The position numbers were made by a program, and so were the translations under genes. Positions 1,916 through 56,250 of a stretch of DNA of 64,000 bases are shown in pieces (position 1 is the first letter of the stretch; the number at the start of each line of letters is the position of its first letter). Under the pieces are notes generated by a model, which saw nothing but the letters and a program-made list of their open reading frames with translations, did not search any database and was not told the origin of the DNA. The stretch spans positions 11,284,001-11,348,000 of the forward strand of contig OX597828.1 of NCBI GenBank assembly GCA_951406725.2, read 5' to 3'. The stretch comes from Octopus vulgaris. Lineage: Eukaryota.

Positions 1916-4468
<2,553 letters not shown>

Positions 4469-4526
4469 TCTCGCTTCTGCCATTGGCCTACAGTGACGTA
4501 TCGCTTAAACTTATAGTTAATAATGT

Positions 4527-4650
4527 TTTCTACTTTAGGCACAAAGCCCGAAATTTCGGGAGAAGGGGCCATTCGTCTCCAGTTTGCAACTGGTACTTAA
4601 TTTATCGATCCTGAAAGGATAAAAGTCAAAGTCAACCTCGGCGGAATTGA
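4527..4650 (-). mobile_element. SINE-B2 fragment
   Basis: Central domain ctggtacttaatttatcgatcctgaaaggataaaagtcaaagtcaacctcggcggaatt with a B2-type tail. Confidence 0.8.
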
Positions 4651-5389
4651 TGCATAAGAACCTTCATGCGATAAATCTCTAACATTCTCTTCAAAAGAAT
4701 GAATGGCAAATGCCATTTATGTAAATCTATTACAGAGGGTACCAGCTAAAATCTGTAGCACGTAATAGGGAAAATAGGCTACTAGCTCCAGATCTTGGTT
4801 TGCTGACGCAAGAGGCCGAGAATCTTTAGTTGATGAGCTACAGGTAGCTCTCCGATCGTATCTTTTCGATCCTAACACGGTGGAAGTAACCGGCGTCCTG
4901 GGACCCAAACATCTGCCTAGTGAGTTTTATTGGGACAGAGATTGCTCACTGCTTACATGTATCCCGCAATTAGAATGTCTCTTTCAGTGCACCATTTTAC
5001 GGAGTCACACTATTGCAATTTTGTCATCCGGAGCAACAATATTTTTGCACGACTCGCTGCAATATATTTACCAAGAAAACTAAAAAATTCAATTTTCAAT
5101 ATAGTGTCAAAGATTTATGTGAAAATAAATAGATGTTTGTTATTTAAAGCCATTTATTATATTTACACAAGGTCAGTGTCTGTGAAAGATGTTTATATTC
5201 TGTTGAATTTACAGGTACAGGTTATTGATAGTTATTTAACAGATGCCGAAATGATATAAGATAGAGGTCGACTGTACTGGAATTTGCAATTAGTTCGTAA
5301 AGGTACATGATTATTCTATAGAATATGAAACGCTTTTGTTATCCACTAAATTAATATTCTTCAAACAGATGGGTAGATAAATAAATATA

Positions 5390-5444
<55 letters not shown>

Positions 5445-5568
5445 TAATTATTATTTGAGGGAATAAAATCCAAACTTACAAGGAAAAAAATTCAATTTAG
5501 AAATACTATATCAAATTTCACATAATATAATATATATATAAAAAATTGACAAAAGGTGTTTTTTTCTA

Positions 5569-5605
<37 letters not shown>

Positions 5606-5606
<1 letters not shown>

Positions 5607-5781
5607 GCGCAGAAGGGGCTGTGTGGTATGTAGCTCGCTTACCAACCACATGGTTCTGGGTTCAGTCCCACTGCGTGGCACCTTGAGCAAGTGTCTTCTA
5701 CTATAGCCTCGGGCCACCCAAAGCCTTGTGAGTGGATTTGGTAGACGAAAACTGAAGGAAGCCCGTCGTATATATGTATAT

Positions 5782-5813
<32 letters not shown>

Positions 5814-6043
5814 GTGTGTGTGTGTTTATGTGTTTGTCTTTCTGTGTTTGTACCCCCAACATCGCTTGACAACCGATGCTGGTGTGTTTACGTCCCCGTA
5901 ACTTAGCGGTTCGGCAAAAGAGACCGAGAGAATAAGTACTAGGCTTACAAAAATTAAGTCCTGGAGTCGATTTGCTCGACTAAAGACGGTGCTCCAGCAT
6001 GGTCGCAGTCAAATGACTGAAACAAATAAAAGAGAGTAAAAGA
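5606..6043 (+). mobile_element. SINE-A, full length
   Basis: Colinear with 1189-1586. Confidence 0.93.
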
Positions 6044-6195
6044 TGTATATAGTAAATTTAAGCATTTCAAGTAAATAAATTTTGAGAAACCGATAGTTAA
6101 AAATATTTAGTTTAATGAACCTACAATGAAGTAGGGTCATATAAAAGCAGAAATATGCTTATAAACAACAAATATAGATTTTGTAAGAAGTACAA

Positions 6196-52130: not shown

Positions 52131-52779
52131 TGCTATCGATCATTGAATGTACGAGTGTATTGGTCAAATAAAATTGAAAACGTTTCTTTCTTTCTTTTCT
52201 TTTCTTTCTCCAAAATCTTTTTGTCGCAGACACTTTTGAATAAAACTGTTAAGATCCTGGTAAGTCCAGACTCGTAATTCAATTTTAATGATTCTAATGA
52301 TCATCTTAATTTCTTTTATTTCACTAATTATCTTGGAAACCAAATGATGGTCATAATATTTCACTTTATATTTCCGGCAAGACATAGAGCTCTTACAGGC
52401 GGCGGCGATTTGGCAGAGCCGTTAGAGCCAGATGTCAACTTTGCCTTCCATCTTTTCAGATAAAAACGAAGCACTTAGGCAGAAGATTGGTAGAATTGGT
52501 AGAATTGTAAGAACTAAAAAACCGGATACTTCGCAGTATTTCAGATTTTTGCGTTCTGAGTTCATATCTTGTCGCAACCTACTTGACTAAAGCGCTTAAT
52601 CCTTAGTTGCATTTCAGAGAGTCCTCCCTGTTGCAACTATTCGGATCAGGTTTCTGCAGTGAGGAACGCTTCATCTCTCTCACAAGTCTCAGAAGCTCCG
52701 TGAAGTGTCATGGATACTGCCTCTGAATGAAAGATTTTCATAAGCGCAGGCGTGGCTGTGTGGTAAGAAACTTGCTTCC

Positions 52780-54255
52780 GTGCATGCGTCAGGTTATTTG
52801 CTGTGTTGATTTTTGACGAGACGGACGGAATTTTTTGAGCTGCTTGCCAGCGGTTTGTTGGTGAGTGTTGTACTAGTGGAAAAGAATGTATTCGGACCTT
52901 AGCGAGTATGAACTATCCTCAGCAGAGGAGGAGCTCGTTAAGGCGGTAAACAGAATGGACGAGCATTTGGAAAGAGTAAAGAGTTTTGCTGAGGCAGCAG
53001 AGGTAAAGAAAAAGGAAGTACACCTAACCGGACTGAAGGAGCTGAGTAAGATGACACAGAAGGTGGGAAGTAATGTAAAGTTATTACTCCCGAAAATGGT
53101 TATGGTAAATATGGAAAAGAAGACTATTACCTACAAGGTGCTCCCAGTGGAGAGTAGAAGGTGGAGCGGATGGAGATGGAAAAAATTGAAAAAACTCTGA
53201 AGGGGCTTTCGAAGGAAGTAAGGTAAATAGGAAGAGGACATGGGACGGTGGTTGTCCAGTTTAGGACAGAAGAAGAGGCAAAGAGGCTGGCGAGTACGAC
53301 TGTAAAAACTGAGAAACTAGTACTTCTACCCACCTGCCTTGGAAGAAAGACTTCTAAGGTGAGGGTAGAAGGAATTCCACCTGACACAGAAGTGGCTTGG
53401 GTTGCGGCAGCCGTCTTCGTTGGAAGTGAGGAGGAGGCGGCTGTTCTTCAAGCCACAGAGACGGAGGAAGGAAGCTATAAAGGAAAAATACTGGAAATGA
53501 TCATACAAGCGGAGGCGAAGGAGCTGGAAAATTTGGCGGAAACGGTGACGATGGGAGAAATAGTATTGAGAGTATGGGTAGAGGGCAGAATTCCGCGATG
53601 CTTTAAATGTGGCCAAAAAGGCCACATTAGAGCACACTGCCCTCTACAGAAGAAAACAATAGAGGAAACAACAGATGAACCAGTTGTGGAGATGGAAGAG
53701 AAAAAAAAGGAAGAAAAGAAAGATGGACGAAAGGAGGAAGAATGGATAGTAACAGAGAGTAGAAGGAAGAAGAGGAAGAAAAGAAAGAACACTGAGTGTG
53801 ATGTGGTACCCCAGTCCAACTCCATCCCACCCAAGACCACTCAGACCCACCCGACAGGCCACCCACCCACTCCCTTTCCCCACAAGAAAAGGAAAAAAGT
53901 GCAGACACCACAGAATTTAGAAGACCCCTCCCACGGTGAAAAAGGTTTCGGAAGAATGTTGTATTTGAGCGATAGCGAGAGTGAAAATAGAACAACTAGA
54001 CCAGAGATTAAAGACGAATTGGGACTCAGAGGTAGCGAGTGGTGTTACTCAGTGTGGGGTGAGTAGCACACTCTTCATATTTTAATTTTCAGATATCATG
54101 CATGTTATCATAACCTTAATTTATTTTCTCGTGTTCATTTTCATGTCACTCACGGTATCATATTTTATTTTTACATATTTTTAATTGTTATATGTCCCCA
54201 CATGTTTTGTAGTGTCCCCTCTATGTTATGCCTTTATGGCAATTTGAAAGAAATA
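52780..54255 (+). mobile_element. ORF1-only non-LTR retroelement, copy 1
   Basis: Lies between aagaaacttgcttcc (52765-52779) and aagaagcttgcttcc (54256-54270). Short 5' UTR, ORF1 and a ~190 bp 3' UTR ending aaagaaata. Confidence 0.88.
52886..54066 (+). pseudogene. L1/Tx1-type ORF1 (gag-like): RRM-like region plus CCHC zinc knuckle; frameshift and stop near 53160-53230
   Basis: ORFs 52886-53200 and 53248-54066; GTVVVQFRTEEEAKRL, KVRVEGIP, CFKCGQKGHIRAHC (CX2CX4HX4C) and a basic RRKKRKKRK tract. Confidence 0.85.
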
Positions 54256-54270
54256 AAGAAGCTTGCTTCC

Positions 54271-55717
54271 GGTTACCCAGAGTGCATTTGGTTTGTTGTT
54301 TGTGTGCGAGTCGGAAGTTTTTTTTTTGTTTTGCTCTTTGAGGTTAGAGATGTACTCAGACCTTAGCGGGTCTGAGCTGTCTTCTTCAGAGGAGGAGCTG
54401 TTGAGAGCAGTAGAAGGTATGGATGAATATTTGAAGAAAATGAAGAATTTCGCGGAGGCTATGGAGGTGAAGAGAAAAGAGGTGGATCTATCAAGAATGA
54501 AGGAGCATGGAAAAATGGTGCAGAAAGTGGGCGGCAACGTGACGTTGTCATCCCAACAAAGAATAATGGATGGCATAAAAAGAAGAACAGTCATATACAA
54601 AGTTTACTCGATAAAGAGTAAGAAAGTCGACCAAATAGAAATAGAGAAAATAGAAAAGGCAGTAAAGGAGGAATCCAACGGAGTAATATACATGACAAGA
54701 GGATGTCAATATGGGACAATGGTAGTGCAGTTTAGAACAGAGGAGGAGGCAAGGAGGCTGGCGGGTAAAAATGTAAAAACGGAGGAAATGGTCCTTCTAC
54801 TCACGTATCTTGGAAGAAGGAATTCCAAGATAAGGGTAGAAGGAATCCCGCTTGGGTTGCGACAGCCGTCCTCATTGGAAGAGAAGAGGAAGTGACTGTC
54901 CTCCAGGCCACGGAAACGGAAGAAGGAAGATTTAAAGGGAAGTCGCTTGAACTTATCATTCAGACCGTGGAAAAACAACTGGAAAATTTGGCAGAGACAG
55001 TATCATTGGGAGAGATAGTTCTAAGAACGTGGGTGGAGAACAGAATCCCACGCTGCTTTAAATGTGGCCAAAAGGGCCACATTAGAGCGCACTGCCCTCT
55101 ACAGAGGAAAACGACAGAAGAAGCGGCGGTGGAGACGGAGGAGGAGGAAAAGGAAGAATTACAGATAGATGGAAGGAACAAGGGGGATGAATGGACAGTG
55201 ACCGAGAACAAAAGGAAAAAGAGAAAGAGGAAGAACAGTCAGTGTGATGTGGGACCCCAGACCAACTCCATCCCACCCAAGACCACTCAGACCCACGCTC
55301 ATCATATGACACCAAACCTACCCACCCCCTCTCCTCACAGGAAAAAAAAGAAGAAAGAACAGACACCACAAAATTTAAAAGACCCCTCCCCCGGTGAAAA
55401 AGGTTACGTGTACATGGTGGAGAGAGTGTTGTCACTCAGCGATGGGGGAAAAGGTAAGACTAGATTAAAGACTAAAGAGGACTCAGGACTCAGAGGTGGC
55501 GAGTGGTGTTACTCAGTGTGGGGTGAGTAACACACTTTTCATATTCTCATTTCTCAAGTTATCATTCATGTATCATTATTTTAATATTTTGATTTTAATG
55601 TTTTTCATGTTCATTTTCATGTGTCATTCATAGCCTCATATTTTTATTGTTATATGTCCCCACATGTGTTGTAGTGTCCCCTCTGTGTAAAGCCTTTATG
55701 GCAATTGAAAAGAAATA
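54271..55717 (+). mobile_element. ORF1-only non-LTR retroelement, copy 2 (different subfamily)
   Basis: Followed by aagaagcttgcttc (55718-55731) and the resumed SINE-A. Same architecture as copy 1 with a different 5' UTR. Confidence 0.88.
54350..55530 (+). pseudogene. L1/Tx1-type ORF1 paralog with one frameshifting deletion near 54850
   Basis: MYSDLSGSELSSSEEELL..., GTMVVQFRTEEEARRL, an identical knuckle CFKCGQKGHIRAHC and the same C-terminus EWCYSVWGE. Confidence 0.85.
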
Positions 55718-56250
55718 AAGAAGCTTGCTTCTCAATTACATGGTTCCGGGTTCAAGCCCATTGCGTGGCTCCTTGGGCAAGTGTCTTTTTACTATAGCCT
55801 CAGAACGACCAAAGGATGAAAGAGAAAGTCGACCTCAGCGGAATTTGAACTCAGAACGTAACGGCAGACGAAATATGGCTACCCATTTCGCCAAGCGTGC
55901 TATTCTGCCAGCTCGCCGCCTTGCTCACACAATATATATGTACGTACACACAATATGTATGTGAGTGGATTTGGTAGACGGAAACTGAAAAGAAGCCCGT
56001 CGAATATATATGCTTATATGTGTGCCTTTCTGTCTGTGTTTGTCTCACCCCCACGCCACCATCGCTTGACAACCGATGTTGGCGTGTTTACCACCCCCGT
56101 AACTTAGCGGGTCGGCCAAAGAGACCCATAGAACAAGTACCAGGCTTACAAAGAATAAGTCCTGGGATCGATTTCTTCGATTAAAAGGCAGTACTCTAGC
56201 ATTGCCGCAGTCAAATGATTGAAACAAGTAAAAGAATAAAAGAATAAAAT
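55718..56250 (+). mobile_element. Remainder of the host SINE-A (head start at 52743-52779), with a 150 bp templated insert
   Basis: catggttccgggttcaagccc...ccttgggcaag continues the head; the family tail ends at about 56250. Confidence 0.9.

Follow-up and report, generated by a model that had tools for sequence, protein, structure and literature searches.

Two ORF1-only retroelements stacked at one base of a SINE in Octopus vulgaris, probably mobilised by an L1-group LINE

We analysed a 64,000-nucleotide (nt) stretch of DNA from Octopus vulgaris (hereafter the window; positions below are window coordinates) in which a short interspersed element (SINE) is split by two retroelements lying head to tail. 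Each of the two units carries the remains of one open reading frame, ORF1, and the order along the locus is SINE head, target, unit 1, target, unit 2, target and SINE remainder. We conclude, with considerable confidence, that the units were inserted independently of each other at a single SINE base and belong to a non-autonomous, ORF1-only family (family A), which likely uses the enzymes of an autonomous L1-group long interspersed element (LINE), here termed the helper. The locus comprises the following features (lengths in base pairs, bp).

52744..52764, +: head, the 5′ portion of the host SINE, interrupted at the base of insertion; recognised from sequence
52765..52779, +: target copy 1, 15 bp, with one private G>A change
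52780..54255, +: unit 1, ORF1-only element of family A, subfamily starting G(C/T)GCATGCG, 1,476 bp
52886..54066, +: ORF1 of unit 1, broken, CCHC knuckle present
54213..54255, +: tail of unit 1, also present in the autonomous helper (77% across 44 columns)
54229-54241, +: tail hairpin of unit 1, TGCC-N5-GGCA
54256..54270, +: target copy 2, which separates the units and whose final letters may derive from the 5′ tag of unit 2
54271..55717, +: unit 2, ORF1-only element of family A, recombinant subfamily starting GGTTACCC, 1,447 bp
54350..55530, +: ORF1 of unit 2, broken, CCHC knuckle present
55675..55717, +: tail of unit 2 common with the helper, 80% over 44 columns
55692-55702, +: tail hairpin of unit 2
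55718..55732, +: target copy 3, 15 bp, with C>T at its final base
55733..55825, +: remaining 3′ portion of the host SINE, ending at about this position, with a piece of a second repeat next; recognised from sequence, and like the continuation after most copies

This layout bears out a preliminary description of the locus, which had proposed a split SINE and three targets bracketing two elements of ~1.45 kb. The target had been given as 14–15 bp; the site stands, and its three copies (at 52765, 54256 and 55718) are 15 bp each and non-identical, the middle one perhaps belonging in part to unit 2. In both units ORF1 extends over 1,181 nt (~393 codons, compared with the ~390 proposed), starting with an ATG at 52886 or 54350, and matches the zf-CCHC Pfam model above its cut-off. 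The frame itself is broken in both, in unit 1 by the loss of 1 bp near 53157, a stop at 53224 and more indels, and in unit 2 by the loss of 16 bp at 54850, again with more indels. The 5′ untranslated regions (UTRs), of 106 and 79 bp, are 62% alike, and the 3′ UTRs, of 189 and 187 bp (~190 bp had been estimated), are 86% alike. Searches for ORF2 gave no match anywhere in the window, consistent with the description of both elements as lacking endonuclease and reverse transcriptase (RT). The private changes of target copies 1 and 3 are not common to both, and therefore give no information on which unit came first. A long terminal repeat (LTR) or retroviral reading was rejected, since the ends are not alike, an LTR is missing and homology is to LINE ORF1s.

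A 16-mer from the SINE head has 14 matches in the window (0.23 expected), and the target 14-mer, at two or fewer mismatches, has 13 (0.74 expected). In genome G000 (2.8 Gb), from which the loci denoted by L-numbers were fetched, the exact head-plus-target 17-mer occurs 129,250 times. We take the head to carry A-box, B-box and CORE-like motifs. Its proposed origin from a tRNA was not confirmed, as ARAGORN detected no tRNA anywhere in the window and one copy scanned against Rfam gave no tRNA match. The 3′ part of the host SINE is broken just downstream of the stack by a fragment of a second common repeat (55811-55922). A published octopus SINE, OR1, is named in the part of PMC4824008 available to us. 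An Rfam match to U2 small nuclear RNA (snRNA) that covers the SINE head, including the target core AGCTTGCT (L211:6345-6545, minus strand), had an E-value of 0.013 and scored 22.7 bits vs a family cut-off of 46, and was treated as chance; separately, some Tx1 elements target U2.

A DNA search of the genome with unit 2 as query returned 886 candidates, 40 of which were scored and 30 fetched. Full-length family A copies with both joints readable (n = 29, the window units included) range from 1,385 to 1,506 bp, with a median of 1,458. For a sample chosen independently of the target we used a 30-mer internal to the 3′ UTR, which has 92 genome matches, and fetched the first 30 (including unit 2 and one apparently duplicated pair). 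Twenty-seven of these 30 loci end at the SINE target, and none has an ORF2 in the 1.6 kb examined upstream of each tail; copies of ~1.45 kb without ORF2, enriched at the SINE site, were what the preliminary description had led us to look for. Given the number of exact sites, the probability of landing at the SINE target by chance is ~2e-5 per insertion. Loci picked by the tail alone lay at the target in 24 of 30 cases, the misses being mostly short ends of family B (a second ORF1-only family, described below), and exact tail-target joints, all families together, number at least 1,658 (control 1) against the 129,250 exact sites.

Family A copies display hallmarks of target-primed reverse transcription, namely target duplication, 5′ truncation (L265 and L270) and an inverted 5′ piece (L052). 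ORF1 is open in L161 (408 amino acids, aa) and L162 (400 aa). One subfamily was recently active, as indicated by four copies, from three loci on separate contigs, that are 99% alike. A protein search with the family A ORF1 returned only four matches, three of them labelled Octopus sinensis or O. bimaculoides, and no listed holder of the element is on record as RNA. Contigs from three presumed-RNA runs, and from one run of uncertain kind, give partial, low-depth cover of a young copy, and were used neither for nor against any claim. Two ORF1-only copies (L075 and L078) adjoin C2H2 zinc-finger arrays; an O. bimaculoides database protein (P0001), probably a gene-prediction artefact, fuses the start of a family A ORF1 to C2H2 fingers.

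The two units in the window are 72.5% identical over their full length and belong to different subfamilies of family A. Across the first third of ORF1 each is 91–96% identical to its six nearest copies elsewhere and 66% identical to its neighbour, as expected if, as the preliminary description proposed, they stem from two subfamilies and not from a local duplication. Unit 2 is itself a mosaic, its first third belonging to the GGTTACCC subfamily (94–96%) and its last third to another (92–94%); L002 and L003 group with it, which indicates that the recombinant was itself amplified. The A/T base that marks the SINE subtype agrees on both sides of the insertion in 26 of 29 copies. The 5′-truncated copies L265 and L270 abut the SINE head directly, and L270 has a private target variant present on both sides.

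Copies of the GGTTACCC subfamily that reside in SINEs of the AAGTAG subtype have a 5′ joint ending in TTCC (12 of 12), a motif found in none of their 3′ target copies. A longer, doubled remnant of the target is visible in six of these 12 and differs from the host in five of the six. These letters and remnants suggest that the source RNA of the subfamily likely starts with target-derived letters, and part of the middle target copy in the window may accordingly be carried by the 5′ end of unit 2 itself. Elsewhere in the genome, stacks occur in which families A and B and the helper are mixed. The stack at L213 and L214 (G000:C7 near 13.46-13.48 Mb) holds at least six elements of families A and B with targets between them; several of those targets have the same variant base, and an autonomous LINE lies upstream.

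Comparison of the two ORF1s over 322 codons gave a nonsynonymous divergence (dN) of 0.199 and a synonymous divergence (dS) of 0.996, a ratio of 0.20 (bootstrap 0.13–0.26) and thus well below 1, as the preliminary description had anticipated. Across copies, the median dN/dS declines with increasing dS, from ~0.55 to 0.23. For a tree of 53 of the 55 copies (two with fewer than 200 aligned codons were left out), we counted 538 synonymous changes, 1,001 nonsynonymous changes and 51 stops on the tips (nonsynonymous/synonymous 1.86), and 473, 472 and 8, respectively, on the inner branches (1.0; tip vs inner p=1.6e-13). The contrast is strongest in core codons 135–265 (1.91 on tips vs 0.64 on inner branches). 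The source lineages kept ORF1 under purifying selection, and the copies in the window have since decayed.

The family A ORF1 is predicted to fold as two RRM-like domains followed by a CCHC knuckle. An AlphaFold2 model of the L161 protein, computed from a 29-row alignment, has a mean predicted local distance difference test (pLDDT) score of 69, with values of ~90 mostly over residues 41–250 and a disordered tail. The top Foldseek matches of the model are tandem-RRM proteins (E 3e-5). With VIA-align, residues 68–156 matched the La RRM (Z 8.8–8.9, root-mean-square deviation 2.6–2.7, 81–82 residues aligned) and residues 156–236 matched folds of the RRM/ACT-like type, an arrangement that is widespread (Z up to 7.8). 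A profile search against solved structures matched only CCHC knuckles and low-complexity stretches, and Pfam assigns the protein zf-CCHC, not Transposase_22. The RRM-like part of the preliminary description is retained as a modelled feature. The type I ORF1 is of the RRM/CCHC type, according to the part of PMC5203782 that we consulted, and the family A model fits it.

A search for the zf-RVT domain revealed many intact ORF2s of ~1,125–1,148 aa; from a sample of 30 loci, 20 full-length elements were fetched. Most of these are at other targets, and their ORF1s are 29–48% identical to that of family A in the aligned parts. The helper at the SINE site was reached only by walking along stacks and tails, which led to L212 and L227, both full-length at the SINE base. 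These two, with L337 and L339, contain an ORF1 and an endonuclease-RT ORF2 within about 5.2–5.5 kb and end in the same tail, and so supply the 5–6 kb relatives whose existence had been put forward as a check. The ORF2 of L337 is open over 1,140 aa, with Exo_endo_phos (APE), RVT_1 and zf-RVT domains, and the nearest solved structure to the helper ORF2 is human L1 ORF2p (8e-67, vs 1e-19 for R2). By its ORF2 domains (APE, RT and C-terminal zinc domain) and its closest match, the helper belongs to the L1 group. Its sequence suggests that it is probably of Tx1 type: an RRM/CCHC ORF1 and a frequent target preference are Tx1 traits in the accessible portions of PMC5203782 and PMC4494074, and the helper combines such an ORF1 with a target-sequence preference. 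No named Tx1 element was among the matches of an RT search and a cluster look-up; L1-Tx1 families are listed in an octopus repeat annotation (PMC13282606, seen in part).

The helpers use the target with high regularity. A search for young copies gave 3,949 candidates, 40 of which were scored; the 30 copies used are 97–99% identical to L212 (itself aside). Twenty-nine match the target strictly and the thirtieth does so without one base; all 30 use the same base, and all 30 are in the AAGTAG subtype of the SINE. Among older relatives (78–92% identical to the L211 query), 26 of 30 are at the target. Some helper copies are internally deleted (L322, L335 and L336). At G000:C2 73.04-73.07 Mb, five zf-RVT matches with ~5.4-kb spacing, three of them with an intact 1,140-aa ORF2, represent an autonomous LINE arrayed in tandem at another target.

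The units have only their last 44 bp in common with the young helper (77–80%). In a set of 170 target joints (a few loci present twice), a pattern that was found by requiring CC and GG, CC-N5-GG, is present in 149, and its loop varies. The flanking pairs of the stem are G-C in 132 and U-A in 134, and a spacer of 10 nt follows in 136; elements at other targets have C-G (24 of 32) and G-U (25 of 32) at the corresponding stem pairs. Support for the hairpin comes from a conserved stem and a varying loop, and we believe it likely to be a signal for the helper ORF2.

Judged by its sequence, the ORF1 of family A did not arise by deletion from the sampled helpers. It is ~33–40% identical to the young helper ORF1 and 30–34% identical to older ones, and a tree that forces family A together with two young helper ORF1s is rejected (approximately unbiased (AU) test, p=6e-5). 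Two further ORF1-only families were identified. Family B (L081–L110 and L181–L210) is ~25–30% identical to family A in ORF1 and has the same SINE base and tail hairpin; it is apparently commoner than family A, and exact tail-target joints counted by two patterns, family B included, number 351 and 162. Family C (L061–L080), mostly 1.6–1.8 kb long, is flanked, where readable, by duplications of 13–22 bp at other targets. One of its copies (L070) lies in the head of an apparent second SINE, and the downstream target of another (L079) is the same as that of the autonomous L156. A grouping of families A and C received 89/91 support in one tree and did not resolve under another model; since 89/91 falls short, their monophyly is neither rejected nor firmly supported. 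One locus, L323 (about 2560–6150), has a family A 5′ part of ~500 bp joined to a helper-type body at a homologous point inside ORF1.

We propose that the helper likely mobilises family A in trans. The signs are indirect: the common target, the 44-bp tail, the mixed stacks and the L323 chimera. The target preference likely belongs to the endonuclease of the helper. A source copy would be transcribed, and its own ORF1 protein would coat the RNA. The helper ORF2 would then bind the 3′ tail, probably at the conserved hairpin 10 nt before the end motif, and its endonuclease would nick the SINE between GGT and AAG, the RNA being copied by target-primed reverse transcription without a poly(A) tract. 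Repair would duplicate ~12–16 bp of target and so rebuild the site for the next element, giving rise to head-to-tail stacks. For the subfamily of unit 2, the target-like letters at the 5′ end of the RNA could anneal to the upstream target and finish the 5′ joint. The preliminary description spoke of a lineage that parasitises a SINE; the SINE does serve as the landing pad, and the enzymes likely come from the autonomous LINE. With only ORF1, an ORF1 kept functional and target-primed hallmarks, family A is an ‘ORF1-present non-autonomous LINE’, a term taken from the portion of PMC5786205 available.

Several observations weigh against this account. Specificity is strong and not absolute, with 3 of 30 family A loci and 6 of 30 tail-picked loci off target. 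The host SINE in the window is of the AAGAAG subtype, in which only two of the 26 older helpers and none of the 30 young ones are found; the helper is therefore likely known as a class, not as the exact partner of these units. The folding energy of the tail hairpin is no better than that of shuffles (z about 0). The C-terminal third of ORF1 is under little constraint (2.11 vs 1.82 in the comparison of tips with inner branches), and recombination among subfamilies can blur the inner-branch counts. The L323 chimera could equally be a template switch or a later recombination in a stack, and mobilisation in trans is itself something that we infer from sequence.

Other origins for the two units can be weighed against the same data. 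Family A could simply have arisen by internal deletion from an autonomous element outside our sample, like mammalian HAL1, with the selection on its ORF1 partly inherited. Internally deleted helpers do exist (L322, L335 and L336), family A and the helper have a common tail, and only 150 of 12,256 ORF1 candidates were scored and 40 fetched. However, a family A ORF1 running into an ORF2 was seen at none of those 40 loci, and the endonuclease-like piece at L074 lies behind a second, different ORF1. Helper ORF1s are only ~30–40% identical to that of family A, and the clade uniting family A with young helpers is rejected. In addition, the subfamilies among which selection was measured (dS up to 1) are ORF1-only, so that it acted after the loss of ORF2, unless ORF2 was lost many times. 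We consider such a parent unlikely; it would alter the origin of the family and not its mechanism.

It is also conceivable that both units arrived together, as a read-through dimer from a stack elsewhere, in a single insertion. Stacks are common, and one pair (a young family A copy followed by the same family B start) recurs at L161/L226 and L171/L227; yet the order of unit 1 then unit 2 occurs at no other locus among the 55 copies tabulated (L009 has it reversed), and the nearest relatives of each unit are mostly alone or with other neighbours, which makes this history highly improbable. We give very little credence to the idea that a composite of SINE plus element spread as one unit, so that the target preference is hitchhiking. 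Most copies are flanked by SINE on both sides and the subfamily of unit 2 has target-like 5′ letters, as that idea would have it, but copies of one subfamily occupy more than one SINE subtype and have flanks that match (26 of 29), truncated copies directly adjoin the head, the privately duplicated variant of L270 contradicts it, and insertion at this base is common to the helpers and several unrelated families. Finally, unit 2 might be a local tandem duplicate of unit 1 that decayed neutrally, the units being adjacent, on the same strand and of the same length. The identity of 72.5%, the dS of ~1.0 with a dN/dS of 0.20 and the different 5′ UTRs refute this, as does the fact that, in the 5′ third, each unit is far closer to copies on other chromosomes (91–96%) than to the unit beside it (66%), and we regard its probability as negligible.

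Beyond independent insertion with helper enzymes, we put forward a broader reading tentatively, and would ourselves sooner doubt than adopt it. Family A might be part of an old, free-standing ORF1-only lineage that does not descend from the current helpers, has an RNA chaperone of its own maintained by selection, and switches helpers by means of its 44-nt tail. Such a lineage would have radiated onto many targets (family A in the SINE; its sister, family C, in other repeats, one of them a second SINE), each having a tail of the same type as the local autonomous families. If true, these elements would be a protein-coding counterpart of SINEs, in which a short, portable tail sets both the helper and the landing site.

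The system joins ORF1-only LINE parasites with target-specific LINEs of Tx1 type, the SINE head being a safe landing site. It bears on what benefit a non-autonomous element derives from retaining an ORF1 of its own and on the shortest RNA signal needed in trans by a site-specific ORF2, and the material is present: an intact helper ORF2, copies with an open ORF1, a 44-nt tail and a 15-bp target. ‘L1-Tx1’ annotations in octopus hide several ORF1-only families, and no host function is suggested for them. L1-Tx1 is listed in PMC13282606, and the terms ORF1, HAL1, non-autonomous and target do not occur in its supplement. We found no report of an ORF1-only, SINE-targeting element in cephalopods in the literature searched, a scope that lay outside subscription papers, Repbase, Dfam and the PMC13282606 library.

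Among known systems, the preliminary description had likened these elements to HAL1 of mammals, a likeness that holds for their mode of working and not for their descent. From the sections of PMC5753468 and PMC5786205 at hand, HAL1 is, like family A, a non-autonomous L1-group element that encodes ORF1p only, and elements of this type arose several times. The family A ORF1, in contrast, is RRM-RRM-CCHC (type I) and not of the mammalian type II (PMC5203782, same portion as above); the coiled-coil/RRM/C-terminal domain arrangement (Transposase_22) of a strict HAL1 ORF1 was not found in it, Pfam giving zf-CCHC and the model a tandem RRM. Unlike HAL1, family A is also sequence-specific, has no poly(A) tract and is not a deletion product of the sampled helpers (AU p=6e-5), with which it has only the 44 bp of the tail in common. 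HeT-A of Drosophila, with its partners TART and TAHRE (PMC5537684, consulted in part), offers another parallel in being ORF1-only, under purifying selection and arranged in head-to-tail arrays with enzyme-bearing partners that are its presumed source of RT. HeT-A, however, belongs to the Jockey clade and occupies chromosome ends, whereas family A sits in a 15-bp internal target of a dispersed SINE, makes target duplications and has no known host function. Ag-Sponge, in the CR1 clade, is likewise an ORF1-only LINE derivative, from a different clade, and the text of PMC5786205 that we saw mentions no sequence-specific target for it.

The insertion habit of family A has a parallel in target-specific Tx1 LINEs, as far as the accessible text of PMC4494074 describes them. 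Tx1 in Tx1D, Keno in U2, and Tx1-Mar and SINEU-3 in Mariner-N4 are cases of insertion in another repeat and of a non-autonomous passenger that shares the target, and such LINEs, like family A, form tandem copies with a target duplication between them and have target-derived 5′ extensions. Their passenger differs in being a non-coding SINE, and their targets are a DNA transposon, an LTR element, an snRNA gene or a microsatellite; in the octopus system the passenger is protein-coding and the target is a SINE head. Each ingredient thus has a precedent, and what is new is the combination, together with the apparent independence of family A from the ORF1 lineage of its helper.

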